From Escherichia coli (GTDB taxonomy: Bacteria > Pseudomonadota > Gammaproteobacteria > Enterobacterales > Enterobacteriaceae): a stretch of DNA of 64,000 bases. Position 1 is the stretch's first letter; every line of letters starts with the position of its first letter. Below are positions 10,041 to 41,387 of the stretch, piece after piece. The stretch is taken from NCBI RefSeq assembly GCF_003019035.1, contig NZ_CP027447.1, one strand, 5' to 3'. The notes beneath the pieces are model-generated. The model saw only the letters and a program-made list of their open reading frames with translations, was not told where the DNA came from and did not search any database. The position numbers and the translations under genes are program-made.

Positions 10041-10114
10041 AGGTTACAAACCTTGCCATTAAAAAGCCCGGATCGCGGGAAGCGCCTCCGGGCGTTTAAC
10101 ATTCACTCAACCTA

Positions 10115-23288: not shown

Positions 23289-24191
<903 letters not shown>

Positions 24192-24196
24192 CTCCC

Positions 24197-25249
24197 TCAC
24201 CCCCATTCCCGCATCCGCTGATGCAGCGTCAGTGACGGCTTCTCGGCAAACAGTTGCTGATAATCCGTGGCGAATTGCCCCAGATGCCAGAATCCCCACT
24301 GCATGGCGGCGTCTTTTACCGTCATACTTTGCGACCACGGGCTTATCAGTTCGCGGCGCACGGCGTTCAGGCGAATGCGTTTCAGCCACGCGTTTGGGCC
24401 AATGCCTAAAATAGCGTGAAAAGCGTTTTGTAGCGTGCGGCGGCTGACATGTAGTTGATTACACAAGTCCAGCACCGTCACCGGTTCGGACATGTTTTCC
24501 AGCACATATTCACGGGCGCGGGAAAGCAATCGACGGTAACTCTGATGACTGATGCTTTCCGCCGTCACCATTGGCTGCGCTTCTTCCAGCATCGCCCCCA
24601 TCGCCATTAGCAAGTTATCCCCCAGCACTTTTCGCACTGCAGGCTGATGGAGATTTTCCGGGTTCTCGCAAAACGTCGCCAGCGCCTGTTGGACAAAGCC
24701 CCACAGAGCGGCTTTATGCTGCTCTTTCACTTCCAGCGCCGACTGGCTACGCAGCATATGTAATACCCGATCCGGATTATGCAAAAAGTTAGCCTGACGA
24801 GTGATGACATCTTCAGAAAGCACTACGCCCAGGATCGTGTAATCGTCCGGCGTACTTAATTCAAACTCGGTTCCACCCGGGCGCGTCGCAATTTCTGCGC
24901 TTCCCAGACATTGCGAACCGATAAATCCCTGCTCACCGCGCGTCGCCGGAATGCCAAACCAGAACGAGTTCGGCCAGACCAGGCACGACTGACGCAGCGC
25001 CAGACCAGTGTATTCACGAAAAACCTGAATATCATCGAGTAGAATTTCCGTAAATTCACCATGAAACTTGCCCGGATGCAGCTGATCGTAAATCTGCTGC
25101 CAGGCGGTAATTGTCAAAGCATGTTCATAGACATCCGTTGTCTGTCGTTGATGAACATTATCCACTTCGACCTTCGGCGTGAGCTTCAGGTTTTCGGGTA
25201 AGGGTTCATGATAAAGATGGTGCAAATTGGCTGTACGGGTCTTTTTCAT
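24197..25249 (-). CDS. eutR: AraC-family ethanolamine operon regulator EutR
   Basis: 350-aa [26 protein letters not shown]...; C-terminal AraC HTH; last gene of the eut cluster. Confidence 0.9.
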
Positions 25250-25294
25250 GATGTTAATGCCGGGTGTTGTAGGACACCCGGCACCTCCGACAGG

Positions 25295-25795
25295 TTAATG
25301 GGGCTTGAGACGATAACGACTACTGCGTTTACGTAACGTCCCGGCAGAAAAGAGCTGTTCGAGCGCATTTCTGGCTTTTTCCAGCGGCCAGCCAAAGTGG
25401 GCTGCCACTTCTCCTGCCGTCATTCCCTGACGTACTGATGTTAACAGCGCCAACAACTCGTCAGCAGATTCCGCGACGATAACTGGCGCGTCGGGTTCCT
25501 TTACGGGTTGCTTCGGCTGGCGGTTAAAGCCAGTAACCAGCCACTGGGTGTCATCGTCTGGCCGACCGATCTCCTTACGGCTGATGACACGCCCGGTACG
25601 CATCGCGGCAGCACAACCTGCGTCCAGCGCCGCACGACACGCCGCCAGATCGCCTTCCACCACCAGCGTTAGGCGACCAGGGTCAAGCACTTCATGGCTG
25701 AGCAGACGAACGTTAGCTGCTTTGAGCATGGCATCCGCTGCATCTATCGCGGCGACCATGCCGTCAACTTCCAGCAATCCCAGTGCATTGATCAT
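25295..25795 (-). CDS. eutK: BMC shell protein EutK
   Basis: ORF track 25295..25801(-) trimmed to MINALGLLEVDGMVAAIDAADAMLKAANV (BMC domain) plus C-terminal extension; 166 aa. Confidence 0.85.
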   Translation of the reverse strand: MINALGLLEVDGMVAAIDAADAMLKAANVRLLSHEVLDPGRLTLVVEGDLAACRAALDAGCAAAMRTGRVISRKEIGRPDDDTQWLVTGFNRQPKQPVKEPDAPVIVAESADELLALLTSVRQGMTAGEVAAHFGWPLEKARNALEQLFSAGTLRKRSSRYRLKPH

Positions 25796-25807
25796 CGGCA
25801 ACCTCCG

Positions 25808-26467
25808 TTACGCACGCTGGATTGGATTACGCGCGATTTCCAGCACTGCATCGGTAAAGGCGTTACAGGCTGCTTTACACGCGGCCTGGCTACCGGTTAA
25901 AAATGCTGCCGAGTAGTTGGTTTCAGACGGTGGCGGGACATAGGTCACCAGCTGCACGTCGGCAGATTTCAACGCTGCATCAATGCCGTAGGTCGCTTCC
26001 AGCGGCGGTGCCACCAGATACGCCATCGGATCGCCAGGCGTGATCCCGGCGGTTGATGAGAGATAAGAACCGGTACGCGAAACGACATGTGCCAGGAAGG
26101 CTGTATTTTCTGCGTCATTAGCCCACTGGAAAGCAGCGCCATTTTCAATATGCGCAACCATCGCATCCAGACCAGCACGCACTTCCGCCGGGTTTGGCCC
26201 ACCCAGCATAATCAGCACTTCACCGGCAGTCGGTGACGGGCCGTGTGCGGCTCCCGCATACAGCGAGCGGCCATACACCACTTCCACCATCGCCTGCTTG
26301 GTCGCTTCGTCAGCCGCAATGTAGGTGACGTCATCTGAATCAGCAGAAATCAGCCCGAGGCTACGAATATGCGGCGGCAATTTCAGTTCACGTGCAAATT
26401 CGGCGTTAACGGAGGCAATCACCCGCATGGCGGTTACCGACGGTCGAATCAAATCTAAAGCTGGCAT
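25808..26467 (-). CDS. eutL: BMC shell protein EutL (tandem BMC domain)
   Basis: 219-aa [44 protein letters not shown]... Confidence 0.9.
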
Positions 26468-26476
26468 GATGCCTCC

Positions 26477-27364
26477 TTATCGGGTCATGTTGATGCCGGA
26501 TGCTTTCTGCTCCAGCATACGTTTCGCCAAATCCACAATGACGGCTGCGGCTTCAACCGGCGGCGTGCCGCCCTGGTGAATGTTAGAGATACAGGTGCGA
26601 TCGGCCTCAACGGTGGTTGCCATACGCGGCGAGTAAACGGCGTAGCAGGAGAGGCTTTCTGACTGCCCCAACCCCGGACGTTCGCCCACCAGCAGGATCA
26701 CCACTTTCGCGCCGAGGATCTCACCGATCTGATCTTCAATCTTCACGCGACCATAACGAACAAAGAATGGCGTGCCGACTTTCAGCCCGGCCTGTTTCAG
26801 GCCCGCCATCAGCGGCGGCAGGATCTCTTCGTAGTTCACGGTGATCGCATCAGTTGACAGGCCATCAGAAATAACGACCTGTACGTCCGGATTAGCAACA
26901 CACTGTGCTTTCAGCGCTTCAACAGCTTCAGCACACAGGCGGCGGCCCATATCCGGACGAGTCAGGTAGAGATTTTTGTCGCTGATTTCGGAGCGGACTT
27001 CCAGCAAGCCCTGCGCTTTCACCCACTCTTCCGGTACTTCTTTCAGAACGGTATCTTTCGAACGAGAGTGATCGGCCAGGAAACGCAGCAACGCCTGGGT
27101 GCGCGGACGCGGACCGGCACGACCGGTACAAACGCGGGCCACGGTGCTGCGACGCAGTTCTGTTAACACATCCGCACGATGTGGGTTTTCAACACCAATC
27201 CACGCTTTTGCTTCCGCAGAACCTAAATCCAGCGCGCAGCTTTCCGAGGTCACCGGTGCCGCACAGGTGGTGGTGGCGCACTTTGCTTCTGACGGCGCGG
27301 GGGCCGCTTGTCCCATTGACGCCATCACGCTGCGTACAATTTCTTCAATCTGTTTTTGATCCAT
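26477..27364 (-). CDS. eutC: Ethanolamine ammonia-lyase small subunit
   Basis: 295-aa [22 protein letters not shown]... Confidence 0.9.
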
Positions 27365-27384
27365 GATGTGTTATCTCCGCGTCA

Positions 27385-28746
27385 TCAGAAGAACAGTGAC
27401 GGATCGCCCGCCCGTTTGGTCAGGCGACCGTTTGCCATAATGCCCATGCTTTCCAGCCAGCGTTCAAACTCCGGTGACGGGCGCAGATTCAGTAACTGAC
27501 GCACAGTGGCAGTGTCGTGGAATGCGGTGGTCTGATAGTTGAGCATGATGTCATCGCCCAGCGGCATCCCCATGATGTAGTTGCAGCCTGCGGTGGCGAG
27601 CAGGATCATCAGGTTTTCGTTGAGGTTCTGGTCAGCGTCAGCGTGGTTGGTGTAGCAGCAGTCACAGCCCATAGAGATGCCACTCAGCTTGCCCATAAAG
27701 TGATCTTCTAAGCCCGCACGGATAATCTGGCGGTCGTTGTAGAGATACTCCGGCCCAATAAAGCCGACCACGGTGTTGACGATAAACGGATCGTAATGAC
27801 GCGCCAGCCCGTAGTTACGCGCTTCCATCGTCACCTGGTCTGCGCCGAAGTTAGCGCCAGCAGACAGCGCCGAACCTTGTCCGGTTTCGAAGTAGAGGCA
27901 GTTTTCCCCGGCGATACGGTTAAACTCTGCACCCACTGCGCGCGCTTCGTCGAGCATCGCCAGCTCCACGCCAAACTCTTTCAGCCCTTTTTCGCTGCCG
28001 CAAATACTCTGGAAAATCAGCCCGCCCGGTGCGCCGCGACGAATCGCTTCGATCTGGGTGGTGACGTGCGCCAGTACGCAGCCCTGAGTTGGGATGTTGA
28101 ATTTGTCGATCACGCCATAGATGGTATCCAACACGCGGCTTAAGTTTTCCACGTCGTCAGTCACCGGGTTAACGCCGATCACCGCATCGCCCACCCCGAA
28201 GGAAAGCCCTTCGTAGATTTGCGCGGCGATACTTTGCACATCGTCACGGGTATCGTTTGGCTGCAAGCGGGCGCTAAAGGTGCCCGGAATACCGATGGTG
28301 GTATTGGCCTTTTTGATCACCGGCATTTTCTTCGCGCCGTAGATCAGGTCCGCGTTGGAGCAAATCTTCGCTACCGCCGCTACCACTTCCGAGGTCAGCC
28401 CTTTGCGGGTAAAGGCAATGTCGTCCACGCTGGTTTCATCGCTCAGCACATACTCACGCAGTTCGCTGATGCTCCAGTTTTTAATCTGGTTGTAGGCCGT
28501 TTCGTTAACGTCGTCCTGAATCAGCCGCGTCACGCAGTCATCTTCATAGGCAATCACCGGATTATTGCGGATGTCCGCTACGGTCATTTCCGACAACACC
28601 TGCTTTGCCGCCACGCGCTCCTGTGAGCTTGCCGCAGCAACGCCCGCCAGCACATCCCCCGAACGCAGTTCGTTGGCTTTAGCCAGCACCTCTTTTACAT
28701 CCTTAAACTGATATACATTGCCGAACAATGTGGTCTTTAGTTTCAT
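27385..28746 (-). CDS. eutB: Ethanolamine ammonia-lyase large subunit
   Basis: 453-aa ORF MKLKTTLFGNVYQFKDVKEVLAKANELRSGDVLAGVAAASSQERVAAKQV... Confidence 0.95.
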   Translation of the reverse strand: MKLKTTLFGNVYQFKDVKEVLAKANELRSGDVLAGVAAASSQERVAAKQVLSEMTVADIRNNPVIAYEDDCVTRLIQDDVNETAYNQIKNWSISELREYVLSDETSVDDIAFTRKGLTSEVVAAVAKICSNADLIYGAKKMPVIKKANTTIGIPGTFSARLQPNDTRDDVQSIAAQIYEGLSFGVGDAVIGVNPVTDDVENLSRVLDTIYGVIDKFNIPTQGCVLAHVTTQIEAIRRGAPGGLIFQSICGSEKGLKEFGVELAMLDEARAVGAEFNRIAGENCLYFETGQGSALSAGANFGADQVTMEARNYGLARHYDPFIVNTVVGFIGPEYLYNDRQIIRAGLEDHFMGKLSGISMGCDCCYTNHADADQNLNENLMILLATAGCNYIMGMPLGDDIMLNYQTTAFHDTATVRQLLNLRPSPEFERWLESMGIMANGRLTKRAGDPSLFF

Positions 28747-28757
28747 AAGTCGTTCCC

Positions 28758-30161
28758 TCAGGAAGGAAATGCGAGTGATTTCACCGTCACCGGCACAACC
28801 GATCCGCCAAAAAGAGGCGTACCAATGTCGATATAGTCCCCCGCGCGGACAATCACTTCGTCAATGACTGCCAACGGGAGTTGTTGTAGCTGTGGGCGCA
28901 ACAACATGCCCAGAGCTTTACCAAAGTCCTGCCCGGCCACCACCAGCAGGGGATGCGGATTCGGAAAACGCGCGACGAAATCGACCAACGCGTTGATGAC
29001 CGTCAGTACCGCGGCGTAACGCACAGGCAGCGAGGCGGGAAGCGCCAGCACGTACGCGTCAGTTTTAGGATCAAGATCCAGCTGAATCAGCGCCTGTTGC
29101 CAGGCACTCACCAGATCCTTTTCATCAATTGGGATCGCCACCGGCAAGTTGCGCAGCGGCAGTTGTACGCCCTCCAGCCAGATTGTGCTGCCAGAGAGCG
29201 AAAGGGTATGTGCACCCGCGCCAATCACCGTGGCGCGCACGGTTTGCGCCGGAAACTGCACGTTCATCTCACGCAGGCGCGGATGGTCATGCAGCGCCGT
29301 TGCCAGAAGCGGGCCAATATCGGCAAAACAGAACGGGTCGGCGGGCTGGTGGCGATAACATTCGCCCACGCCGCCAGAAAGCGTAATGATTTCGGGCGTA
29401 ACACCTGCGGGCAGCAAACCGGTTTGCATTAATGCCTGCGCGAGCGGCGAAAGCGTTCCGTCAATCACTTCGACAATCAGCTCTGCCATCCGCCGGGTAA
29501 CCTGCACCAGCTGCGCGCCGGTCAGCGAACGGGCGTCGGTGCCTGCGCCGAAGCACTCATCCACAATCATCTGCCCCGGTTTATGAGCGTAAACCACGCG
29601 CCCCTGGCTGTCGGTTTCCAGCAGGCGACCGCCGACATTGAGGCAGGCGGTGCCGCTGATTTTTCCGGCATCGAACAGGGCGTAGTTCGCGGTGCCACCG
29701 CCGATATCGATATTCAGGACCCGACACAGCCGTTGTTCAGAAAGGGTTTGCGCCCCGGCACCGTGACCGGCGATCACGGATTCGAGATGCGGTCCAGCGC
29801 TGGCGACGACAAAATCGCCCAGCGACTGGGAGAGCGTCATCACCGCCGGGCGAGCGTTGCGGGTTTTCGCGCTTTCACCGGTGATGATGATGGCACCAGA
29901 ATCAACGCTTTCCGGCGCAATGCCCGCAGCCTGATATTGCTCGAGGATTAAGGTTTTCAGTTCCGCTTCTTTTAAACCACCCTGTTTATCGACAGGGGTA
30001 AAGAACACCGGGCTTTGCCAGCTAATTTCGCGTTTGATGAATTCGTAGCGCGGCACCTGCGACACCGCCGCACGGTTAACCAGCTCCAGGTGGGAGAAAA
30101 TCACCTGGGTGGTGGTGGTGCCGATATCGATACCGACGCTCAGTAGCTGGCGAGTGTTCAC
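28758..30161 (-). CDS. eutA: Ethanolamine ammonia-lyase reactivase EutA
   Basis: 467-aa ORF MNTRQLLSVGIDIGTTTTQVIFSHL...; starts 11 bp after eutB with no intervening prophage. Confidence 0.9.
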   Translation of the reverse strand: MNTRQLLSVGIDIGTTTTQVIFSHLELVNRAAVSQVPRYEFIKREISWQSPVFFTPVDKQGGLKEAELKTLILEQYQAAGIAPESVDSGAIIITGESAKTRNARPAVMTLSQSLGDFVVASAGPHLESVIAGHGAGAQTLSEQRLCRVLNIDIGGGTANYALFDAGKISGTACLNVGGRLLETDSQGRVVYAHKPGQMIVDECFGAGTDARSLTGAQLVQVTRRMAELIVEVIDGTLSPLAQALMQTGLLPAGVTPEIITLSGGVGECYRHQPADPFCFADIGPLLATALHDHPRLREMNVQFPAQTVRATVIGAGAHTLSLSGSTIWLEGVQLPLRNLPVAIPIDEKDLVSAWQQALIQLDLDPKTDAYVLALPASLPVRYAAVLTVINALVDFVARFPNPHPLLVVAGQDFGKALGMLLRPQLQQLPLAVIDEVIVRAGDYIDIGTPLFGGSVVPVTVKSLAFPS

Positions 30162-31384
30162 GATTGCGCCTCCGCTTCGGTTTTAGCCGCGCTCGCGTCT
30201 TCTTTAGGTACCAGCATCATCGCCACGCCAATCGCCGTGACGCCGCCGATCAGCTTGCCGACAATCATCGGGAAGATCATGGCGTTCATGTTGGCAGCCG
30301 CGAAGCCTAAATGGTCGCCCAGGGCGAAAGCAGCGGAAACGGCGAAGGCACAGTTGATGACTTTGCCGCGGGTATCCATCTGCTTCATCATGCCAAACAT
30401 CGGGATGTTGTTGGCAAGCGTTGCCACCATGCCGGCTGCCGCTATATTGTTCATATTCAGCACCTTACCGACACTCATCAGCGGTTTTTCAAACCAGCGA
30501 GTCAGCAGCAGCACCATCGGATACGCCCCCAGCAGCACGCAGGAGATAGAACCGATAACTTCAATGGCGCGCATCACTTCACCGGGTTTGTCGCCTGGAG
30601 CCATGAAGATCGGATCCAGACCGGGGATCAGTTCCCAACCGAGCAGGAATTTCACTACCGCAGCGGCAAGACCGAGGGTGATCAATGCAACGAGGAATTT
30701 GGCGAAGATCTGGAAGCCGTTGATCATTTTTTCCGGGATGAATTTCAGCCCCAGCGCCACCAGCACCGCAACGATAAGTACCGGGATCATGTTCATCAGG
30801 ATCAGGGCAAAGGTGAATTCAACAGGCTGGCCGTTGATCTGCACACCGGAGTACATCGCTACCAGACCACCAGCGATACAGCCAATCGGAATGGTCACTA
30901 TGCCCGCCAGCACGCCGAGCGCCAGATAACGACGGTCAGAAGGTTCGATAATGCCGAGCGCCACCGGAATGGAAAACACAATCGTTGGCCCCATCATCGA
31001 CCCGAGAATTAACCCAGAGTATAGCCACGCTGCTACGTCACCGCCCGCCAGCTCTTTGGCGAGGAAGAAGCCGCCCATATCGCACGCCAGCAGTGTTCCA
31101 GCGAACATTGACGGGTTTGCGCCGAGCATTTCGTAAACCGGGATAATCACCGGCCCGAGTACGTGGGCCAGTACCGGTGCCAGCGCGGTCATACCGACCA
31201 TAGCCAGGCCCAGAGCGCCCATTGCCATAAAGCCTTCTTCGAACTGACCGCCGGATCCTTCGATACTTTTACCGAACTTACCGAGGAAACGAGCAGAACC
31301 GCCGAACTGCGACAGGATCCTGTCTACGGCAGCTATCAGCATAAAGAACATCATGATGTACATGATGATTTCGTTAATTCCCAT
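30158..31384 (-). CDS. eutH: Ethanolamine permease EutH
   Basis: 408-aa polytopic membrane ORF MGINEIIMYIMMFFMLIAAVDRILSQFGG... Confidence 0.9.
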   Translation of the reverse strand: MGINEIIMYIMMFFMLIAAVDRILSQFGGSARFLGKFGKSIEGSGGQFEEGFMAMGALGLAMVGMTALAPVLAHVLGPVIIPVYEMLGANPSMFAGTLLACDMGGFFLAKELAGGDVAAWLYSGLILGSMMGPTIVFSIPVALGIIEPSDRRYLALGVLAGIVTIPIGCIAGGLVAMYSGVQINGQPVEFTFALILMNMIPVLIVAVLVALGLKFIPEKMINGFQIFAKFLVALITLGLAAAVVKFLLGWELIPGLDPIFMAPGDKPGEVMRAIEVIGSISCVLLGAYPMVLLLTRWFEKPLMSVGKVLNMNNIAAAGMVATLANNIPMFGMMKQMDTRGKVINCAFAVSAAFALGDHLGFAAANMNAMIFPMIVGKLIGGVTAIGVAMMLVPKEDASAAKTEAEAQS

Positions 31385-31437
31385 CGCCTTTACTCCCTGT
31401 TAGTTGTTATTTATTGCCAATGCTGAAAGTGGGTTTT

Positions 31438-31556
31438 TCCCTCACTCTGGAAGCCGAGGGGCCGGGGTGAGGGTAATTGTTTGCACCGGCGCGACTCTGT
31501 TCCCCTCACCCTAACCCTCTCCCCAAAGGGGCGAGGGGACTGTCCGTACACTTTTA
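31438..31556. repeat. Composite GC-rich palindromic intergenic repeat (possibly Box C-type) in the eutH-eutG spacer
   Basis: Inverted repeat ccctcac...gtgaggg (31438-31472) followed by tgttcccctcaccctaaccctctccccaaaggggcgaggggactgtccgtacactttt; a second copy of the latter lies at 46998-47055. Confidence 0.7.
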
Positions 31557-32741
31557 TTGCGCCGCAGCATACAGACCAATAATCTGCTCCAGGCTGGCGG
31601 TACGCGGGTTGCTGCGCAGACAAATATCTTCCAGCGCGGCCTGCGCCCATGCGCCGTAATGTCCGGTGGTTGCGCCCACGTCTGCCAGCCGCTTGTTGAT
31701 CCCGACCTCCGCAATCAACTCACTTACCGCGTTAATAGCGTCACGATCGTCGGATTTTTTAGTTCGCAGTGCCCGGCCAATCTGACTAAACCGATCACGA
31801 CAAACCATCCGGTTAAATTCCATCACCGTTGGCAGCAACATAGCGTTCGCCAGACCGTGCGGAATATGCAGCGCCGCCCCTGGCTGATGCGCCATCGCGT
31901 GGCACAACCCAAGCCCCGCACTGGAAAACGCCATTCCCGCCATACATGAAGCCAGCAACATGCTCTCGCGGGCGGCAAGGTCGTGACCGTAGCCCACCGC
32001 TTTCGGCAGCGATTTGCCAATCATCGCAATGGCACCAATCGCCAGACTGTCGGTAAACGGTGTGGCGTTCAGCGCGCTGTACGCTTCAATGGCATGGGTT
32101 AACGCATCAATGCCAGTCATCGCCGTGACATGCGACGGCACACCTTCGGTCAATGCGGCGTCGAGAATCGCCACATCCGGCATCAGCGAGGCATGGGCTA
32201 ACACCTGCTTACGCCCGCTCACCGCATCGATAATCACCGTTACGTTGGTGGTTTCAGAGCCGGTTCCGGCGGTAGTCGGAATGGCAATCAACGGCAGGCG
32301 CGATTGCAGAACGCTGGTTTCTGACATCTCTGCCAGCGTGCTATCCGGGTTCGTCACCAGCAACGCCACGGCTTTTGCTGCATCCAGCACCGAGCCGCCG
32401 CCAAACGCAATCACCCCGTCACAGCCTGATTCACGCAACTGCGCCACGGCTGCACACACGTCGGTGATGCATGGTTCGCCCACCGGACATGGCCAGAGCG
32501 TCATGGCGATACCTTTAACGGCCAGGCTACGTGTCAGCCCGGCGGTCATCCCTGCCTGATGCAAAAAGCTGTCTGCCATCACGAACAGATGTTTCAGCCC
32601 ACGCGTTTGCGCTTGCTGCCCACAACTGCTCACCGCGCCCGGACCGCAAAGCGTCACCGGTGGAACGCTAAATGTTTTTACCCGTTGCAGATTCAGGGTA
32701 TCGAACGCCTGAAAGAGCGCGGTCTGCAATTCATTTTGCAT
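31554..32741 (-). CDS. eutG: Iron-containing alcohol dehydrogenase EutG
   Basis: 395-aa ORF MQNELQTALFQAFDTLNLQRVKTF...; Fe-ADH motifs GGGSVLDAAKAVA. Confidence 0.9.
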   Translation of the reverse strand: MQNELQTALFQAFDTLNLQRVKTFSVPPVTLCGPGAVSSCGQQAQTRGLKHLFVMADSFLHQAGMTAGLTRSLAVKGIAMTLWPCPVGEPCITDVCAAVAQLRESGCDGVIAFGGGSVLDAAKAVALLVTNPDSTLAEMSETSVLQSRLPLIAIPTTAGTGSETTNVTVIIDAVSGRKQVLAHASLMPDVAILDAALTEGVPSHVTAMTGIDALTHAIEAYSALNATPFTDSLAIGAIAMIGKSLPKAVGYGHDLAARESMLLASCMAGMAFSSAGLGLCHAMAHQPGAALHIPHGLANAMLLPTVMEFNRMVCRDRFSQIGRALRTKKSDDRDAINAVSELIAEVGINKRLADVGATTGHYGAWAQAALEDICLRSNPRTASLEQIIGLYAAAQ

Positions 32742-33567
32742 ATAGCCCCTCCGCTTTCTCTCGCCCGCTACTGGCGATCGCCAGCGGGGTCATAAACAAA
32801 CTGTGCTGCGGTAAATGCACCTGTAACGCCGGAAATTGTTTGCGAAACAGTTCCGCCACGCCCGGTTGCATACAAGAGCCGCCCGCCAGCCATAAATCCG
32901 TAATGCCCTGCCCTTCAATATGCCGGGCGACAATGTCCGCCATTTTTTCGTACACCGGTTTCACCGCGGGCCAAATCTCTTCACCGTGACCGCGCTTGTA
33001 CTGCTCTGCCTCTTCCAGCGAAATACGACGATTTCCGGCGAGAGTCAGAGAGATGTGATGTCCGCCGGTCGCTTCATCCGCCGAGTACGTCACCTTGCCC
33101 TTTTTCACGATGGCAATACCAGTAGTGCCACCGCCGATATCCACTACACCGGCGTTGTCCAGTTGCAGCAGATCCGCGACTGCGGTTGGCTCATCCAGTA
33201 CATGGCTCACTTCCAGTCCGGCAGATTCCAGCACGTTGATGGAAATACGCGGGTCCGTACCTGGAGGAAAAGAGGTCGCCGCATGGCTAAAACGGCGACC
33301 GAATTGCTGCTCGAGGGTGTCGAGATGGCGACGAACAATGGTGACCGCACCGAAGAAATCCCAGACGATGCCGTCGCGGACCACATCAGCCCAGTCGAGG
33401 CATACCGCCACCGGCTGACCGTCGCGGTCGACAACCATCGACACCACATCGCAGGTGCCCAGATCCACCCCCAGCCACAGCGGAGATTCCGTCGCGGCGG
33501 GCGTCTGGTTACACAGCGTTGCCGCCGTTTGCAGACGTGGGGTGAGCCATTGTTCGTCGTGCGCCAT
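32731..33567 (-). CDS. eutJ: Hsp70/actin-fold chaperone-like protein EutJ
   Basis: 278-aa ORF MAHDEQWLTPRLQTAATLCNQ...; ATPase motifs LGVDLGTCD and VVDIGGGTTGIAI. Confidence 0.9.
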   Translation of the reverse strand: MAHDEQWLTPRLQTAATLCNQTPAATESPLWLGVDLGTCDVVSMVVDRDGQPVAVCLDWADVVRDGIVWDFFGAVTIVRRHLDTLEQQFGRRFSHAATSFPPGTDPRISINVLESAGLEVSHVLDEPTAVADLLQLDNAGVVDIGGGTTGIAIVKKGKVTYSADEATGGHHISLTLAGNRRISLEEAEQYKRGHGEEIWPAVKPVYEKMADIVARHIEGQGITDLWLAGGSCMQPGVAELFRKQFPALQVHLPQHSLFMTPLAIASSGREKAEGLYAK

Positions 33568-33577
33568 CGGTTACTCC

Positions 33578-34981
33578 TTAAACAATGCGAAACGCATCGA
33601 CTAATACACAGCGACGCAGACGGACAAACGTCCGCGCGCTGGTTACCCCTTCACCGGTTGGCGTGGTGATGGTCATCGTGGTCCAGCCTTCCCCGCCCAG
33701 CCCCAGCCCGGCAATGCACGGTCCGTTCTTAACGAAAATGCTGGTATCAATGGCGTTCGCCATCTGGTTCATGTTTTCGATGTTGCGCGAGTGCATTGCC
33801 GCCGTGTGGTGGCAACCGCCTTCCAGTTTCACCGCCAGCGCAATGGCATCCGCCACGTTGGCGACGCGCACGACGGGCAGCACCGGCATCATCAGTTCAG
33901 TCACAGCAAACGGATGTTCTGCGGTGGTTTCTACAAACAGCAGTCGCGTTTGTTCCGGAACTTTAAGGCCGATTGCCGCCGCGATTTTCGCCGCATCGCG
34001 ACCAACCCAGTCACGGCTGACGGTGCCTTTTCCGCACTCGTCGATATTTTTCAGCAACACCGATTGCAGTTGCTGCGCCTGCTCTGCGGTCAGTTTCACC
34101 GCATGCTGGCCTTCCATCAGACGCATCAGTTCATCGGCTACGCTATCAACAACAATCAGTACCTTTTCGTCGGCACAAATGATGTTGTTATCGAAAGACG
34201 CGCCTTTGACGATGGACTGAGCAGCACGGGCGAGGTCGGCGGTTTCATCCACCACTACCGGCGGGTTGCCAGCGCCTGCGGCAATCAGACGTTTATTGGT
34301 GTGTTTACGCGCCGCTTCCACTACCGCTTCGCCGCCGGTCACCACCAGCAGGCCGATACCCGGGAACTTGAACAAACGTTGCGCGGTTTCGATATCCGGA
34401 TTGGCCACAGTAACCAGTAAGTTTTCCGGCCCGCCTGCGGCAACAATCGCCTGGTTGAGCAGCGTAATCGCCCGCTGGGAGACTTTTTTCGCCGCCGGAT
34501 GCGGGGCAAAAATGACGCTGTTGCCCGCGGCAATCAGGCTGATGGCGTTGTTAATTACGGTTGCCGCCGGGTTAGTGGAAGGCGTCACCGAAGCCACCAC
34601 GCCCCAGGGCGCGTTTTCAATCAGGGTCAGGCCGTTGTCACCGGTCAGCACCTGTGGTGAGAGGCACTCAACGCCTGGTGTGCCGCGCGCCTGAGCGACG
34701 TTTTTGGCAAATTTATCTTCAACGCGCCCCATGCCGGTTTCACTGACGGCAAGTTCCGCTAAATCTCTGGCGTGTTTTTCGCCTGCCTCACGAATGGCAG
34801 CAATGGCTAACTGGCGCATTGCCACGCTTTTTAACCCTTGCTGGGCGACTTTGGCTGCCGCAACGGCGTCATCCAGGGACGCGAAAACGCCCATCTCATG
34901 AACGGCGGCGGGCGGCGTGTCACTGCTTTGCATTTTCAGCAGTACCGCTTTCACCACCTGTTCAATATCCTGTTGATTCAT
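33578..34981 (-). CDS. eutE: Acetaldehyde dehydrogenase (CoA-acylating) EutE
   Basis: 467-aa ORF MNQQDIEQVVKAVLLKMQSS... (N-terminal encapsulation-like helix) plus ALDH fold. Confidence 0.9.
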   Translation of the reverse strand: MNQQDIEQVVKAVLLKMQSSDTPPAAVHEMGVFASLDDAVAAAKVAQQGLKSVAMRQLAIAAIREAGEKHARDLAELAVSETGMGRVEDKFAKNVAQARGTPGVECLSPQVLTGDNGLTLIENAPWGVVASVTPSTNPAATVINNAISLIAAGNSVIFAPHPAAKKVSQRAITLLNQAIVAAGGPENLLVTVANPDIETAQRLFKFPGIGLLVVTGGEAVVEAARKHTNKRLIAAGAGNPPVVVDETADLARAAQSIVKGASFDNNIICADEKVLIVVDSVADELMRLMEGQHAVKLTAEQAQQLQSVLLKNIDECGKGTVSRDWVGRDAAKIAAAIGLKVPEQTRLLFVETTAEHPFAVTELMMPVLPVVRVANVADAIALAVKLEGGCHHTAAMHSRNIENMNQMANAIDTSIFVKNGPCIAGLGLGGEGWTTMTITTPTGEGVTSARTFVRLRRCVLVDAFRIV

Positions 34982-34992
34982 GATGTTCTGCC

Positions 34993-35280
34993 TTATTTGT
35001 GGAAAATGACCTGACCGCCAGACACCACCTCATCGACGATGCCAATCACGCACAGATCGACCGGTGACGTTTCGCTTTTATGCGCCTGGCGGGCGGAACT
35101 GCCACTCACCAGCAACACCCACTCCCCGGTTCCCGCGCCAATATTGTCGATGGCGACGGCGCATTGCCCGTCAGGATTACCTTGTGGATCAATCATTTCC
35201 ACCATCAGCAATTTGTCATGCGCCAGTCCGTGATGGCGTACGGTACAAACAATTTGTCCAGTGACGACTGCCAGTTTCAT
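34993..35280 (-). CDS. eutN: BMC vertex (pentamer) protein EutN
   Basis: 95-aa ORF MKLAVVTGQIVCTVRHHGLAHDKLLMVEMIDPQG... Confidence 0.9.
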   Translation of the reverse strand: MKLAVVTGQIVCTVRHHGLAHDKLLMVEMIDPQGNPDGQCAVAIDNIGAGTGEWVLLVSGSSARQAHKSETSPVDLCVIGIVDEVVSGGQVIFHK

Positions 35281-35386
35281 ACCCGCCTCCGTGGCGTATT
35301 TCAGGTAAAAGCTCCCCCTACCCTCCGCAGAAGGTAAAATGAAAAAGGAGAGAGCGTGACGCCCGAATCGACGTCACACAGGGTGA

Positions 35387-35680
35387 TTACAGGTTGCTGC
35401 TATCGCCTTTCAGGCCGATCGGGAAGACTTCTTCCAGGTCGCCGTGCGGACGCGGGATAACGTGTACAGATACCAGCTCGCCGATACGCTGTGCCGCTGC
35501 GGCACCTGCATCGGTCGCGGCTTTACAGGCTGCAACATCACCACGAACCATGGCAGTACACAGGCCGCCGCCAATCTGCTTAACACCAACCAGCTTGACG
35601 CGCGCAGCTTTAACCATCGCGTCAGAAGCCTCAATCAGTGCAACCAGGCCCCGGGTTTCGATCATTCCTAATGCTTCCAT
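35387..35680 (-). CDS. eutM: BMC hexamer shell protein EutM
   Basis: ORF track 35387..35722(-) trimmed to [40 protein letters not shown]; 97 aa. Confidence 0.85.
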
Positions 35681-35718
35681 TGTGCTTTCCTCTTTATCAG
35701 GGTCCAGAACGGGACCGT

Positions 35719-36735
35719 TCATTCAACCAGTGTTTGTAAACTGCTTTCGCGGTTCACTTCTGTCTGACGCGGCACAGCTGCCACCAGCGCCAGTTCGATA
35801 ATTTCCTGCACGCTACAACCACGAGAGAGATCGTGCATCGGCGCGGCAAGTCCTTGTATCAATGGCCCGACGGCACGATATCCGCCAAGTCGTTGTGCGA
35901 TTTTGTAGCCAATATTTCCGGCTTCCAGCGACGGAAAAACCATCACATTGGCCTTGCCTTGTAGCGGGCTGGCAGGCGCTTTTTGCGCCGCCACTTCCGG
36001 CACGAAGGCGGCGTCAAACTGCAACTCGCCATCGACAACCAGCTTTGGTGCGCGCTCACGGACGATTTCTGTCGCCTGCTGCACGTTGGCAACGCAGGGG
36101 TGACGGGCACTACCGTTGCTGGAAAACGACAGCATCGCCACGCGCGGTTCTTCTCCGGTGATGGCGCGCCAGGTTTCGGCGCTGGCAAGCGCGATATCCG
36201 CCAACTGCGCCGCCGTCGGCTGTGGCACCACGCTGCAATCGGCAAAACCCAACGCCGGACCGCTGTACTGTGGCAGCATCAGGAAAATGGATGAGAGCGT
36301 TTTACAGCCTGGCTGCAAGCCAATAATGCGTAATCCGGCACGCAGCACATTCGCCGTGGAAGAGAGGTTGCCCGCGATACAGACATCCGCTTTACCGGCG
36401 CTGACCATTGCTGCGGCGAACATCAGCGGGTCGGTAAGTTTTTCCAGCGCATCCGGCGGCGTTTTTTCGCCCGCGCGGGCCAGCCAGCGATGAGCAAATT
36501 CTTCCCGCATTGCGAGGTTGCCATGCGGATCAATCACCTGTAGCCCGTCCATCGCCACGCCATGACTGAGCGCAAACTGACGAAGTTCAAACGGATTGGC
36601 GACCAGAATGGGCGTTGCCAGACCTTGTTGATGTAAATATTGCGCAGCTTTCAGCACACGTTGATCTAACGCATCCGGAAAAACTACTCTGGCGGGCGCT
36701 CGCAACGCCAGTTCACGACAACGTTTAATAATCAT
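35719..36735 (-). CDS. eutD: Phosphotransacetylase EutD
   Basis: 338-aa [41 protein letters not shown]... Confidence 0.9.
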
Positions 36736-37535
36736 TGCGTTTCCCCCAGTCGTTGTTGGATCTGCTTCACCGTTAGCGGTTGTTTCGCTACGCTCAGGAT
36801 CATCATCACGTAAACCGTGCTCGAAAGGCGGTTCAGCGCCTGCAAAATGTCCGGGCGTAATACTTCAAAGCTGCGGGTGATAAAGACCTGCGCCGCTACG
36901 GTTTCGGTTTCCCGCACTTTGGTGCGTAGCAGATTTAGCAACGCCGCATCGCGCCCGTGGCTGGCTTCCGGCACCAGATGATCGTGGTCGAGATAACGCA
37001 GCGGCTGGTGAGAAAGCCGATGCAGATCTTCGTCAGAAAGCCCGACAATCGCTTGGCAGGCCAGCGGTTCCCCCAGCGCATCGGCACGCATAATGTTGCC
37101 AAGACGCGAACGGATATCCGCCAGCCACGGCTGCCACGGTTCCGCCAGTTCAATTTGCAGCCACACTGCCAGCGCAATGGTGCTGTCGAGAACCGCGCGA
37201 AAAGCCAGGCGCGGATCGCTTTTGGCAACCATTTTTTCCGCCGACAGGTGAGTCAGCGTATCCGGCTTTTTTGCCACCGGCTGGCGGCACAGTTCGCAGC
37301 ACGCCTGCGGATGTTCATCGCTACTGGTAAGCCCGTGAACGGGCTGCGGCTGCTGCTGTTCATCGTCAACAAACAGGCGGCCCTGCTCGTCAATAAACTT
37401 GATGCGCAGATGGCGGCTTTCCAGTAACTCCCGGGCAGAGGGCGTCAGGCGACTGTCCGCAGGGAGATGGATCTCTGCGCCTTCGCTGAGCGTATGGTTC
37501 GCTCTTAGCCATGCTTCGGTGATGAAATCTTTCAT
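36732..37535 (-). CDS. eutT: Cobalamin adenosyltransferase EutT
   Basis: 267-aa [41 protein letters not shown]... Confidence 0.9.
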
Positions 37536-38233
37536 AGGGATTGCCAGTTAGCCGGCCAGGCGACATACAGGAATTTCACGCTGGATGTCGTACCAAATTC
37601 GATACTGGAGCCTTTCGGGATAAACATCACATCGCCCGCTTTGGCGATCATAGTTTCGCCTTCGTGGCGAACATGCAGCTCCCCTTCCAGCACCATGTCG
37701 ATTTCGTCGTAGTTCAGGGTCCACGGAAAGAAGGCGTTCTCCCACTGCATGAAACCAGCGGCCATACTGCTGCCGTCGTCTCCGGTCACGAGATCAGTCA
37801 AGCCTACGCAGTGCGGTTCCGCGCCATCGAAACGACCAAACTTGACGCTGCTGCCATCAATCACTTTGATGCCGCCTTTGCCGGTCACCGATTTGAAGCT
37901 CGGCTGCATTGCACCCTGCTCCAGTGACTGTTTTTCCTTCATCACTTTTTCCATCAGCTGCGCGACCAGGCTTTCGGTAAACTGGCCTTCCGGTAGCTGG
38001 GCGATGATGGTTTCGCGGATGCGCTGGCTTTCGGTTTTATCGGCTGGCACGCTGGCGGGAACGGACGTCGTTACCGCAGTCGATTCATCACATTCGGTGA
38101 TGGTAAAACCCAACAGATCCGCCACTTCACGGGCTTCCGGGGTAATAATGCTGGCGCGCAGAACCACGGACATTGCCTGTTCGCCGCGCGCGTGTGCTTC
38201 ACGAATATCATTCGCTGTGATGAGTTTTTTCAC
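37532..38233 (-). CDS. eutQ: Cupin-fold acetate kinase EutQ
   Basis: 233-aa ORF MKKLITANDIREAHARGEQAMSVVLRASIITPEAREV... Confidence 0.9.
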   Translation of the reverse strand: MKKLITANDIREAHARGEQAMSVVLRASIITPEAREVADLLGFTITECDESTAVTTSVPASVPADKTESQRIRETIIAQLPEGQFTESLVAQLMEKVMKEKQSLEQGAMQPSFKSVTGKGGIKVIDGSSVKFGRFDGAEPHCVGLTDLVTGDDGSSMAAGFMQWENAFFPWTLNYDEIDMVLEGELHVRHEGETMIAKAGDVMFIPKGSSIEFGTTSSVKFLYVAWPANWQSL

Positions 38234-38687
38234 CTGCTTCCTCCTGTTTGGTGAGAGATGCCAGATAATCCACCAGTTGCTGCACGCTTTGCGGGTCGTG
38301 GCTGTTTAGCTCGAAAATCGGCTCTTCGAAGCCCGTCTCAAGCAATAACTTTCGCGTTGCGGCGACGTCAGCATCCGGCATGTCCGTTTTACTGATGACG
38401 GCGATTTGCCGTTTGCTGACGCCAATATCCAGCAACCCGGCAGGCAACCGACTTTCCGGGTCATTCGCGCCGTGGACATAGATCAGCATGTCCACATCCT
38501 GTAGCGTGGTAATTAAGGCGTGATACCAGCGGGGATGGCTGAAATATTCACCCGGCGTATCAATATCGCCCTTATCATTAAATTCCACGGCCTGTGTTTT
38601 TCTGGCGAGGGTATAATTCCCCTGCAACGCATTAAATAACGTTGTTTTTCCTGCCCCGACGGTACCCACAAACGCAATTCGTTTCAT
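38208..38687 (-). CDS. eutP: P-loop NTPase / acetate kinase EutP
   Basis: 159-aa ORF MKRIAFVGTVGAGKTTLFNALQG (Walker A). Confidence 0.85.
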   Translation of the reverse strand: MKRIAFVGTVGAGKTTLFNALQGNYTLARKTQAVEFNDKGDIDTPGEYFSHPRWYHALITTLQDVDMLIYVHGANDPESRLPAGLLDIGVSKRQIAVISKTDMPDADVAATRKLLLETGFEEPIFELNSHDPQSVQQLVDYLASLTKQEEAGEKTHHSE

Positions 38688-38699
38688 GAATGCCTCGTA

Positions 38700-39035
38700 T
38701 TAACTTTTGGTCATTTCACAAAGCGTATAATTTAATAAGCGTCCTAAACCACTGACGGTTTGTGATAACGCTTCTTCTACTGCGCCCACCGAGCCATAAA
38801 TCACCAGCGCGCCGCTAAAACGGTCGAGAAAACCGATATGCACATCGGCGGCTTTCAACGCTAAATCACCGGCGATCATCGCCGTTTCTCCGGGAGTTAG
38901 CGTCATAATGCCGATTGCGCCCGCATCCGGAACGCCGATTTTCTTCGCCAGTTCCTCGCCGGGATGCGCGATGAGATGCGCCAGTGTGACCTGTTTACCG
39001 GGCACAAATTCCTGAATGATGCGTTCTTTATCCAT
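38700..39035 (-). CDS. eutS: BMC shell protein EutS
   Basis: ORF track 38700..39107(-) trimmed to [32 protein letters not shown]; 111 aa; first gene of the eut operon. Confidence 0.85.
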
Positions 39036-39400
39036 GAGTCGCCGCCTGTGAAAAACTTTCGTGTATCGTGACAATTTTTCGTCAGAGTAAATAACAAAAT
39101 TCGGCAAGCGCGTTTAAAAGGTGAGGTAGATCACTAAGAATGGAGAGATATTTTATGTTAAGAAAAAAAACATACATTGTATGAATATAAACGGGAACCA
39201 ATAAGTTTTGTTTATCATATGTACTACAACATCTTTTAATAATCCCTCGAATCACCCGACGTTGTATTTTTAATAATTAGCAGAATACATATTTAATGTA
39301 CTGTTGTATTCTGAAAAATATTATTATCTTCACCCCATTTAAAATACATCTTACGCGATGATTTTATTCAGGAAATAAATAAAATGGATGGATCCCTGGA
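39036..39400. promoter_or_regulatory. AT-rich divergent promoter region (eut operon promoter upstream of eutS; promoter of the plus-strand glycosyltransferase cassette)
   Basis: 365-bp strongly AT-rich spacer between the divergent eutS and glycosyltransferase starts; the regulatory role is inferred, no site was mapped. Confidence 0.5.
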
Positions 39401-40471
39401 ATGAAAATTCACTACCTTGTCACCACCCTCGAAGCGGGAGGCGCTGAATTTGCGATTCCTGATATTGTGACTACTCTGCAAGACCTTGGTCATGAGGTGA
39501 AAATTTATGTCTGTGAACCCCGCGATATGGGAGCAGCGCCTCGTCTGGAAGCCGCTGGATTATCCTGGTGTTTATTATCAAATCGGCGGCGTTCTGAACC
39601 CATGCTTGTAGCTGCTTATCTGGCAAAAATCATTCACGACAAACCCGATCTCATCTGGACTTCGTTAAGTTGGGGGACTCGTATTGGGCAATGGGTCGGC
39701 CGGCTTATGGGCATTCCTGTTATCAGTTTTAAACATAGCGCCAGCGTAAAACCAGCGACCTGGCGTATGCGCAACATGTCTCGTTTATGGATAGGAGATT
39801 CTGAAACCGTAGCTCAATACCTGCATGAAACCATGTTGATCCCGAAGCAACAAGTGCTGTGCTGGCCCTTTTTTCAGGCGAATCCGCAAGCTGCCCAAGC
39901 GCAAAACTGGGACGGGAAATCAGTTTTACAATTAGGCTCTGTTGGACGCCTGCATGAAGTTAAAAATTACGCTGGATTAATTACAGCACTCGCTTCGTTT
40001 GTAGATAAAAACCCGCAATTGCGCTCGCGAATCCGATTAACCATTCTCGGTGAAGGGCCTGAACAGGAAGCATTGCAAAAAACCATAACGCAACACGCGT
40101 TGGAGGATGTGGTTTGTTTAGCGGGTTTTTCTGCGGATGTCGAAAATTTTCTTGCCGGATTACATGTCTACATCCAGACCTCCCGCTACGAAGGGATGTG
40201 CCTCGCTGCACACGAAGCCATGAATGCAGGGCTTGCAATCATCACGACTCCTGTAGGCGAACTTAAAGAATCGGTAATAGATGGTCATACTGGATATACG
40301 CTTAATGGCGAGCTAACGCCAGCGCTGGAGGGTGTGCTTAACCGTATTTTAAGTGAACCCGAAGAATTAGAACGCTATGGGCAAAATGTGCGGCAGTATG
40401 TATTAGCGAAGTTCAGCCATGAAAATTTTGTCCAGTCTGCAATCAACATCGTCAATAGACTTATTCACTGA
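39401..40471 (+). CDS. Glycosyltransferase family 1 (GT-B fold, GT4-like) protein; accessory gene
   Basis: 356-aa ORF; C-terminal region RYEGMCLAAHEAMNAGLAIITTPVGELKESVIDGHTGY resembles the retaining GT1/GT4 sugar-donor binding motif; to my recollection K-12 has no gene between eutS and maeB. Confidence 0.7.
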   Translation: MKIHYLVTTLEAGGAEFAIPDIVTTLQDLGHEVKIYVCEPRDMGAAPRLEAAGLSWCLLSNRRRSEPMLVAAYLAKIIHDKPDLIWTSLSWGTRIGQWVGRLMGIPVISFKHSASVKPATWRMRNMSRLWIGDSETVAQYLHETMLIPKQQVLCWPFFQANPQAAQAQNWDGKSVLQLGSVGRLHEVKNYAGLITALASFVDKNPQLRSRIRLTILGEGPEQEALQKTITQHALEDVVCLAGFSADVENFLAGLHVYIQTSRYEGMCLAAHEAMNAGLAIITTPVGELKESVIDGHTGYTLNGELTPALEGVLNRILSEPEELERYGQNVRQYVLAKFSHENFVQSAINIVNRLIH

Positions 40472-40484
40472 ACAAGGCAGAAAA

Positions 40485-41387
40485 ATGAATTGCTATACCA
40501 CCGATCTTTGGCAGATAGGCATTGTTCAGGCCCCCATACAGCACATTGTTGCTTCTGGCAGTTTGGATGGCTTCAGGATTAAATGGATTACCCCGGATAA
40601 ATCACTCACTTTTCTTGCCGATCCTTTCGGTCTGTGGAAAAAAGGGGTTCTCTATCTTTTCGCGGAATCCTACGATTATCGGACTCGTCGTGGCGATATT
40701 ATCGCTTATAAGCTCAATGCTGACCTGGACGTCATTGAGCAACGAACTGTGCTACAAGAACCCTGGCATCTTTCTTATCCTTTTGTGTTTGAAGCCGATA
40801 ACGAAATCTGGATGTTACCTGAAGGATATAAATCAGGTACGCTAACGTTGTACCGCGCTATAGAGTTTCCCTGGCGATGGGAAAAGGTGCCAGATTTTTC
40901 ATTCCCTTGCGCTGCCATTGATGCCACCCCCTTTTACGCACAAGGAAAATGGTGGATGTTTTATACTCCCCCACTACCAAAGGCAGCCAGGACGGATACG
41001 TTAATGCTCGCTCATGCCCCCCATTTTATGGGGCCATGGGAAAACGTCCTGCAAACTGCCGCGCACAGGAATAAAAGCGGCGCGCGTATGGGCGGAACAC
41101 CATTTGATCATGATGGGCAAATTTTCTTACCAACACAAGATTGCAGCCGAACCTACGGTGGCGCATTGCAGATGCTGACACTAGACCCACAACGTTTATT
41201 AACTCCAGAATTTGCTGCCTCTGTGCGCCTGGAAGTGCCTGCAAGTGCCGCGCCTTTTATTGCTGGCATGCATACGCTTTCTGGCGTTGGCGACGTAACA
41301 TTCATTGATGCCAAGCGACACCTTAAAGGTTCGCCTCAGCGATTATGGGTGGATTTGCAGCGGCGGATACAGAAGTGGATCAGCTAA
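40485..41387 (+). CDS. Hypothetical protein, possibly beta-propeller glycoside-hydrolase-like; co-transcribed with the upstream glycosyltransferase
   Basis: ORF track 40419..41387 trimmed to ATG 40485 (MNCYTTDLWQIGIV...), 13 bp after the GT stop with aagg RBS; DPFG..W and aromatic-rich repeats (WHLSYPFVFEADNEIWMLPEGY, KWWMFYTPP); family assignment unverified. Confidence 0.55.
   Translation: MNCYTTDLWQIGIVQAPIQHIVASGSLDGFRIKWITPDKSLTFLADPFGLWKKGVLYLFAESYDYRTRRGDIIAYKLNADLDVIEQRTVLQEPWHLSYPFVFEADNEIWMLPEGYKSGTLTLYRAIEFPWRWEKVPDFSFPCAAIDATPFYAQGKWWMFYTPPLPKAARTDTLMLAHAPHFMGPWENVLQTAAHRNKSGARMGGTPFDHDGQIFLPTQDCSRTYGGALQMLTLDPQRLLTPEFAASVRLEVPASAAPFIAGMHTLSGVGDVTFIDAKRHLKGSPQRLWVDLQRRIQKWIS

Follow-up and report, generated by a model that had tools for sequence, protein, structure and literature searches.

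Within the window, by which we mean the entire 64,000-nucleotide stretch of Escherichia coli DNA analysed, positions 24197–39035 are filled by 17 minus-strand genes in the canonical order eutS-P-Q-T-D-M-N-E-J-G-H-A-B-C-L-K-R, with no other gene in between according to the ORF map and the gaps (Table 1). The ORF scan returned 17 consecutive minus-strand reading frames between 24197 and 39107; for eutS, eutM and eutK, protein lengths were counted from the annotated starts at 39035, 35680 and 25795, respectively. The longer 111-aa frame that the scan reports for eutM is an in-frame extension upstream. All 17 protein lengths equal those of K-12, and neither an internal stop nor a frameshift was found in any of the 17 genes. 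The widest intergenic gaps measure 169 nt (eutG–eutH) and 106 nt (eutM–eutN). On both sides the operon is flanked as in K-12, by hemF/amiA and by maeB/talA/tktB; eutR and hemF are convergent, their stop codons lying 5 nt apart (hemF ends at 24191). We are therefore almost certain that these genes make up the eut operon of the E. coli chromosome, at its usual site between hemF and maeB and in the uninterrupted form carried by most E. coli.

Table 1. Features of the eut locus, listed in the direction of transcription (coordinates are those of the window)
Feature	Coordinates	Strand	Evidence
eutS-proximal promoter region, expected P1 and EutR site	39036..39152	-	117 bp 100% identical to K-12
eutS, BMC shell protein, 111 aa	38700..39035	-	NF012012 EutS 247 bits, full length; Pfam BMC; 0 aa changes vs K-12
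eutP, EutP/PduV-family GTPase-like acetate kinase, 159 aa	38208..38687	-	NF012011 352 bits, 1-159/159; 3 aa changes vs K-12
eutQ, cupin-fold acetate kinase, 233 aa, GTG start	37532..38233	-	NF012001 500 bits; Pfam EutQ; 26-nt eutP overlap as in K-12
eutT, cob(I)alamin adenosyltransferase, 267 aa	36732..37535	-	NF011595 570 bits, 1-267/267; Pfam Cob_adeno_trans
eutD, phosphotransacetylase, 338 aa	35719..36735	-	NF007233 410 bits; TIGR00651 pta; 1 aa change vs K-12 (E4K)
eutM, major hexameric shell protein, 97 aa	35387..35680	-	NF012018 213 bits, 1-97/97; Pfam BMC; protein identical to K-12
eutN, pentameric vertex protein, 95 aa	34993..35280	-	NF011992 210 bits; Pfam EutN_CcmL; protein identical to K-12
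eutE, CoA-acylating acetaldehyde dehydrogenase, 467 aa	33578..34981	-	NF011927 739 bits, full length; 6 aa changes vs K-12
eutJ, DnaK-like chaperone-type protein, 278 aa	32731..33567	-	NF011660 402 bits; protein identical to K-12
eutG, iron-type alcohol dehydrogenase, 395 aa	31554..32741	-	NF011998 884 bits, 1-395/395; 94.9% nt identity and 10 aa changes vs K-12
eutG-eutH spacer, 169 nt, dispersed GC-rich palindromic repeat	31385..31553	-	alignment to K-12
eutH, ethanolamine permease, 408 aa	30158..31384	-	NF011665 873 bits, 1-408/408
eutA, ethanolamine ammonia-lyase reactivase, 467 aa, GTG start	28758..30161	-	NF007991 1072 bits, 1-467/467; Pfam EutA
CPZ-55 attachment core TCAGGAAG, unoccupied, single copy (eutA stop codon + 5 nt)	28758..28765		K-12 flanks overlap by exactly 8 bp
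eutB, ethanolamine ammonia-lyase large subunit, 453 aa	27385..28746	-	NF011649 665 bits; Pfam EutB (PF06751) 686 bits; protein identical to K-12
eutC, ethanolamine ammonia-lyase small subunit, N-terminal extension, 295 aa	26477..27364	-	NF003971 340 bits, residues 52-294; Pfam EutC (PF05985) 276 bits; 1 aa change vs K-12
eutL, tandem-BMC trimeric shell protein, 219 aa	25808..26467	-	NF011934 401 bits; two Pfam BMC stretches; 6 aa changes vs K-12
eutK, BMC shell protein, C-terminal helix-turn-helix-like domain, 166 aa	25295..25795	-	NF012010 362 bits, 1-166/166; Pfam BMC + EutK_C
eutR, AraC-family activator, 350 aa, last gene	24197..25249	-	NF007522 790 bits, 1-350/350; 2 aa changes vs K-12

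For each of the 17 proteins the corresponding NCBIfam model gives a match that exceeds the curated cut-off and covers nearly the full length; for EutD, EutE and EutB the models concerned are generic ones, for phosphotransacetylase, aldehyde dehydrogenase and the EutB subfamily. A Pfam scan of 10 of the proteins returned the expected domains (BMC, EutN_CcmL, EutB, EutC, EutA, EutQ and Cob_adeno_trans). The locus has the composition of an enterobacterial long (EUT1-type) ethanolamine-utilisation microcompartment operon. The signature enzyme, adenosylcobalamin-dependent ethanolamine ammonia-lyase, is encoded by eutB and eutC; the N-terminal extension of EutC is presumably an encapsulation peptide. 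All three shell classes are represented, namely hexamers (EutM, EutK and EutS), a tandem-domain trimer (EutL) and a pentamer (EutN), with PF00936 found in each hexameric protein and twice in EutL, and PF03319 in EutN. The genes for reactivation and cofactor supply (eutA and eutT), the aldehyde-processing core (eutE, eutD and eutG) and, at the 3′ end, the regulator gene eutR are likewise present. A search of the whole window with Rfam at gathering thresholds returned no RNA family, and hence no riboswitch or small RNA in or near eut. The original prediction of 17 eut genes in canonical order and with matching lengths is thus borne out by the ORF map, the family models and the K-12 lengths, as is its expectation of unbroken reading frames.

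All three query segments, which between them span the 64 kb, match the chromosome of E. coli SCU-301 (NZ_CP051751.1) at 100% identity, with no difference detected; the RefSeq entry for this chromosome lists the same 17 eut genes, none of them as a pseudogene. SCU-301 is a phylogroup F, ST967 commensal (PMC11251922). K-12 MG1655 (b2437–b2462) has the same genes, order, strand, protein lengths, overlaps, spacers and chromosomal neighbours, but differs in the CPZ-55 prophage between eutA and eutB, in a eutG–eutH spacer of 216 nt with REP-type repeats where another repeat occurs here, and in 122 bp that upstream of the eut promoter take the place of a 2.2-kb island. Nucleotide identity to K-12 ranges from 94.9 to 99.7% per gene, eutG being the most diverged. 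The identity of only ~97% to most genomes raised the possibility of an unusual recombinant eut allele; this was rejected, since divergence from K-12 is just as high in the flanking housekeeping genes, which fits a phylogroup F background.

Alternatively, lineage-specific substitutions may have inactivated a Eut protein, leaving a cryptic loss-of-function allele behind open reading frames. The Eut proteins differ from those of K-12 at 48 amino-acid positions, including the gain of a proline in EutL (L144P) and of a cysteine in EutE (R316C), and the recent RefSeq accession of the EutD allele (WP_169057781.1) suggests that this allele is rare. However, all Eut proteins score far above their family cut-offs and are nearly full length, and EutS, EutM, EutN, EutJ and EutB are identical to their K-12 counterparts. 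Since eut and the housekeeping genes on either side are diverged to the same degree (~97% identity), the substitutions are typical polymorphism between phylogroups, and we consider inactivation extremely unlikely.

The eutA stop codon (TGA, 28758–28760) and the eutB start codon (28744–28746) are separated by 11 nt (28747–28757). The original prediction, in which eutA begins 11 bp after eutB, gave the right distance and holds in plus-strand coordinates; read as transcribed, the order is the other way round, with eutB starting 11 nt after the end of eutA. As had also been predicted, the ~6.8-kb CPZ-55 prophage is absent: in the alignment to MG1655 a segment of 6,790 bp is simply missing, and the junction, an 11-nt spacer, contains no integrase or other phage gene. 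Occupancy of the CPZ-55 type, with intZ and yffL-S between eutA and eutB and a duplicated 8-bp core, is not seen here; the core, TCAGGAAG, occurs once, whereas K-12 has two copies, one at each end of CPZ-55.

CPZ-55 between eutA and eutB is characteristic of the K-12 lineage, and the site has been described as a prophage hot spot (PMC6652756). This raises the question of whether the junction was once occupied and later restored by precise excision. Precise loss does occur, as in the K-12 derivative JM83 (NZ_CP077969.2), which retains K-12 sequence on both sides of the site and has lost CPZ-55. Moreover, ~459 out of 5,426 complete E. coli genomes have an occupied site: just 213 contain full-length CPZ-55, most of these being laboratory derivatives of K-12, and ~200 others contain intZ-like integrases at 80–90% identity. 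Because excision is scarless and would leave an identical sequence, the junction itself would look the same under either history. Parsimony nevertheless argues against excision, which appears very unlikely: the junction is uninterrupted in 4,964 of the 5,426 genomes (91.5%), and 5,052 records match its 400-mer at 99% identity or more. With the majority state and a single, intact attachment core, the uninterrupted junction is plausibly ancestral.

The same frequencies bear on the use of the empty site as a strain marker. Being common to 91.5% of complete genomes, it discriminates poorly and is a weak marker; the value originally attached to it was overstated, even if it pointed correctly away from K-12. 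Nor does it strictly follow from an uninterrupted operon that a strain is not K-12, as had been proposed, since JM83 also lacks CPZ-55. The conclusion itself stands on other grounds, for the ~3% nucleotide divergence from K-12 and the 100% identity to SCU-301 mark the strain, by its sequence, as one other than K-12.

A working scheme for the operon can be proposed by analogy with the systems characterised in Salmonella and E. coli. EutR, made at low level from an internal promoter, would together with ethanolamine and adenosylcobalamin activate the promoter P1 upstream of eutS, so that the 17 genes would be transcribed as one message. EutS, M, N, L and K would form the shell and EutH would admit ethanolamine, which EutBC would convert inside the shell to ammonia and acetaldehyde, with EutA reactivating the enzyme and EutT supplying adenosylcobalamin. 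Acetaldehyde would be converted by EutE to acetyl-CoA and then by EutD to acetyl-phosphate, or by EutG to ethanol with recycling of NAD; EutP and EutQ would act as acetate kinases. This P1/P2/EutR logic has been described (PMC7617246; PMC5821096). According to the cited papers and the family models, the operon resembles the 17-gene system worked out genetically in Salmonella enterica Typhimurium LT2 and those of E. coli Nissle 1917 and UPEC in its uninterrupted eutS…eutR arrangement, P1/P2 promoters and EutR. This arrangement has been called "the same operon" (PMC6652756; also PMC7617246, Fig. 1C), and the 17 genes belong to the E. coli core genome (PMC6652756). Induction by ethanolamine and adenosylcobalamin, compartment formation and growth on ethanolamine have been demonstrated for other uninterrupted E. 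coli (PMC7617246); in particular, Nissle forms compartments and grows on ethanolamine, whereas K-12 BW25113 does not (PMC7617246; PMC5821096). By analogy, the present operon would be expected to be expressed, to assemble a shell and to support growth on ethanolamine. The original description of this as well-known biology was apt: the operon is textbook material, and the literature covers it as well as CPZ-55 and its site (PMC6652756). The finding matters little. It confirms the non-K-12 origin of the window, and the eut locus appears, on sequence grounds, fully competent, which is the normal condition of E. coli and is relevant to fitness in the gut and urinary tract.

The 117 bp nearest eutS are fully conserved relative to K-12, while coding DNA is ~3% diverged, and homology to nearly all of the ~5,400 genomes ends at 39152–39168. 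This shared end point suggests that the functional promoter lies inside the 117 bp. EutR binds just upstream of the P1 −35 element (PMC5821096), and P1 itself would probably fall within this segment. A simple consensus scan for sigma-70 promoters and terminators upstream of eutS gave no match, as expected of an activator-dependent promoter, for which such a scan is uninformative.

Immediately beyond, from the boundary 39152/39153 to 41380, lies a low-GC island of 2.2 kb (GC 0.42), which replaces 122 bp found in K-12 and most strains. Its two genes encode a GT4 glycosyltransferase and a GINT1_N/GH43-like protein, and its transcription is divergent from eut P1. It is the only non-textbook element, and it adjoins the operon rather than lying inside it. 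No direct or inverted repeats or IS remnants were found flanking the island, the only such structure being the maeB terminator hairpin at 41390–41417; comparison of its proteins with PDB sequences and PADLOC defence models gave nothing significant, and a literature search found no paper describing a eutS–maeB glycosyltransferase island.

Since the island replaces everything beyond −117 of eutS and places the glycosyltransferase gene, in divergent orientation, beside P1, the operon may be intact and yet mis-regulated or silent; AT-rich DNA of this kind could attract H-NS. The conserved 117 bp, together with the end of alignability of most genomes at the same point, speak against such an effect, as does the fixation of the island at ~100% identity in 83 genomes that all keep eut, and we regard mis-regulation as very unlikely. 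It may also be speculated that, in the mainly phylogroup-F set of strains carrying it, the island shares or perturbs EutR/P1 control, thereby coupling surface-glycan modification to ethanolamine sensing, a suggestion that we hold to be highly unlikely.

The repeat-bearing eutG–eutH spacer variant is present in 304 of the 5,426 genomes, and the median number of places per genome at which its repeat occurs is 7. The spacer is predicted to form two strong hairpins, but with a z-score of only −1.26. As lineage markers, this variant (5.6% of genomes) and the nearby glycosyltransferase island (~1.6%) are much better than the empty prophage site.

Every component of the eut operon is present, intact and in order. 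An ORF scan of the window found 17 consecutive ORFs on the minus strand, none of them containing an internal stop, and a gene-by-gene comparison showed that the lengths of all 17 products are exactly those of their counterparts in E. coli K-12 MG1655 (see the table; the starts of eutS, eutM and eutK were taken from the annotation of an identical RefSeq record). All 17 products also match their own NCBIfam models above the curated cut-off and over nearly their full length (for example, EutA with 1072 bits, EutG with 884, EutH with 873 and EutR with 790), EutD, EutE and EutB doing so through the phosphotransacetylase, aldehyde dehydrogenase and EutB subfamily models, respectively. The original prediction of 17 genes in canonical order and of the expected lengths is thereby borne out. 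Pfam searches detected one BMC domain each in EutS, EutM and EutK and two in EutL, EutN_CcmL in EutN and EutK_C in EutK, as well as the EutB, EutC, EutA, EutQ and Cob_adeno_trans domains.

The fine structure of the operon is likewise that of K-12. This applies to the GTG starts of eutQ and eutA, to the overlaps between genes (26 nt for eutP/eutQ, 4 nt each for eutQ/eutT, eutT/eutD and eutH/eutA, and 11 nt for eutJ/eutG), to most of the intergenic spacers and to the neighbouring genes, amiA–hemF on one side and maeB–talA–tktB on the other. As in K-12, the stop codons of the convergent genes hemF and eutR are only 5 nt apart, which leaves no space for a separate terminator between them. Nucleotide identity to K-12 ranges from 94.9% for eutG to 99.7% for eutM; the 17 proteins show 48 amino acid differences in total, and five of them (EutS, EutM, EutN, EutJ and EutB) are identical. 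The sole difference in EutD is E4K; the accession of this allele, WP_169057781.1, is recent in RefSeq, which suggests a rare or strain-specific N-terminal variant.

Positions of the features discussed, in window coordinates
Feature	Position	Strand	Length	Remarks
eut operon	24197-39035	-		17 genes
eutS	start 39035	-	111 aa
eutP		-	159 aa
eutQ		-	233 aa
eutT		-	267 aa
eutD	35719-36735	-	338 aa
eutM	start 35680	-	97 aa
eutN		-	95 aa
eutE		-	467 aa
eutJ		-	278 aa
eutG		-	395 aa
eutH		-	408 aa
eutA	stop codon 28758-28760	-	467 aa
eutB	start codon 28744-28746	-	453 aa
eutC		-	295 aa
eutL		-	219 aa
eutK	start 25795	-	166 aa
eutR		-	350 aa
hemF and eutR stop codons	24191-24197
eutA-eutB spacer	28747-28757		11 nt
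K-12 flank overlap	28758-28765		8 bp	TCAGGAAG
Junction probe	28552-28951		400 bp	centred on eutA/eutB
eutG-eutH spacer	31385-31553		169 nt
Region directly upstream of eutS	39036-39152		117 bp	100% identical to K-12
Island	39153-41380		2,228 bp	42% GC
GT4 glycosyltransferase	39401-40471	+		Pfam PF00534/PF13439
Predicted protein	40419-41387	+	322 aa	GINT1_N domain (PF24793), weak GH43 match

The window was compared in three spanning segments (1-24000, 24000-39500 and 41400-64000), each of which matches the chromosome of E. coli SCU-301 with 100% identity (NZ_CP051751.1, positions 1476726-1540725, reverse complement); the record of this strain gives a healthy student's rectal swab as the isolation source. 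The strain, a commensal, is listed under phylogroup F, ST967 (PMC11251922). Identities of at least 99% are rare elsewhere, being found in 13 records over 1-24000 and in four over the eut stretch. Apart from the regions discussed here, the window consists of core genome (ptsI, ligA and cysA through acrD, tmcA and aegA). Identity to K-12 is about 97% both in the eut region and in the housekeeping genes that flank it; accordingly, the divergence of about 3% belongs to the lineage and is not specific to eut. There is no indication that a missense change has inactivated any of the Eut proteins, since all of them score far above their family cut-offs and eut has diverged only to this background level.

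In MG1655, eutA and eutB are separated by CPZ-55, an annotated cryptic prophage of 6,790 bp with intZ and yffL to yffS on the strand opposite to eut. A three-way alignment showed that the window at this junction corresponds to the K-12 eutB flank fused to the K-12 eutA flank. When the window was compared by BLAST with the K-12 locus, the two flanks were found to overlap by the octamer TCAGGAAG, which consists of the eutA stop codon and five further nucleotides. In K-12 the octamer flanks CPZ-55 on either side, and in the window it has a single copy; it is therefore the unoccupied attachment core. Alignments to K-12 revealed no integrase, phage gene or scar at the site, and no frameshift was found in any eut gene. 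The original prediction that eutA and eutB lie 11 bp apart and that the roughly 6.8-kb prophage is absent thus agrees both with the length of the spacer and with the joined flanks.

The empty site is nevertheless the common state of the species. Of 5,426 complete E. coli genomes, 4,964 (91.5%) matched the junction probe without a break, and about 459 showed a split match. Full-length CPZ-55 occurs in 213 of the 5,426, nearly all of them laboratory derivatives of K-12, with at least 99% identity, and about 200 more carry only an intZ-like integrase of 80-90% identity, suggesting that different elements with related integrases may share the site. Such varied occupancy is consistent with its description as a prophage hot spot in a study that assigns the 17-gene eut operon to the core genome of E. 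coli and gives CPZ-55 between eutA and eutB as typical of the K-12 lineage (PMC6652756). Alternatively, the empty site might be the product of a secondary excision. Although the sequence alone is compatible with either history, this would be less parsimonious than an ancestral uninterrupted arrangement, given the prevalence of empty sites. A case of excision may be seen in the K-12-derived laboratory strain JM83 (NZ_CP077969.2, locus 1-16200), whose two eut flanks match MG1655 with 100% and 99.9% identity and in which CPZ-55 is missing, apparently through precise excision. JM83 is therefore K-12 sequence devoid of the prophage, and the argument that an uninterrupted operon cannot be K-12 is not strict. 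That the window is not K-12 still holds, because of the divergence of about 3% and the identity to SCU-301. Similarly, the uninterrupted state was called correctly, but as a strain marker it has little value, being shared by 91.5% of genomes. The operon is in fact already known: it is well described, already annotated and in its commonest configuration.

The gene content suggests that the operon would be expressed and functional. By analogy with the Salmonella and E. coli systems, the internal promoter P2 would provide a low level of EutR, which, in response to ethanolamine and adenosylcobalamin, would activate promoter P1 upstream of eutS, leading to co-transcription of the 17 genes. In those systems, the EutR site is located immediately upstream of the -35 element of P1 (PMC5821096). 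The shell would be built of EutS, EutM, EutN, EutL and EutK, and ethanolamine would enter via EutH to be converted by EutBC into acetaldehyde and ammonia, with EutA reactivating EutBC and EutT supplying the cofactor. The trapped aldehyde would be processed by EutE, EutD and EutG with recycling of CoA and NAD, while EutP and EutQ would serve as acetate kinases; EutJ is chaperone-like. Owing to the CPZ-55 insertion, strain BW25113 neither induces eutB nor forms compartments nor grows on ethanolamine, whereas the uninterrupted E. coli Nissle 1917 is capable of all three (PMC7617246).

Between the eut promoter and maeB lies a low-GC island of two genes, both divergent from eut, which stands in place of 122 bp of the eutS–maeB spacer found in K-12 and most strains. 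A disturbance of P1 by the island, whose edge lies 117 bp upstream of the start codon of eutS, is unlikely: the conserved stretch in between stops exactly where the alignment to almost all genomes stops, and the island and eut occur together in 83 genomes with about 100% identity. In all, only 83-89 of the 5,426 genomes carry the island, with about 100% identity; an 88%-identical variant of its first gene was detected in six genomes. No flanking repeats were found around it; its proteins had no relatives among PDB sequences and no matches to PADLOC defence-system models, and a literature search found no published description of a glycosyltransferase island between eutS and maeB.

The operon also departs from K-12 in the eutG–eutH spacer, which in K-12 is 216 nt long with REP-type repeats, whereas the shorter spacer of the window harbours a different, dispersed GC-rich palindromic repeat (CCCCTCGCCCCTTTGGGGAGAGGGTTAGGGTGAGGGG...). 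No Rfam family was detected anywhere in the 64-kb window. The predicted RNA fold of the spacer comprises two strong hairpins, yet is unexceptional when compared with shuffled sequences. Of the 5,426 genomes, 304 have this spacer variant. The repeat resembles the 'Box C' class and occurs at a median of seven places per genome.
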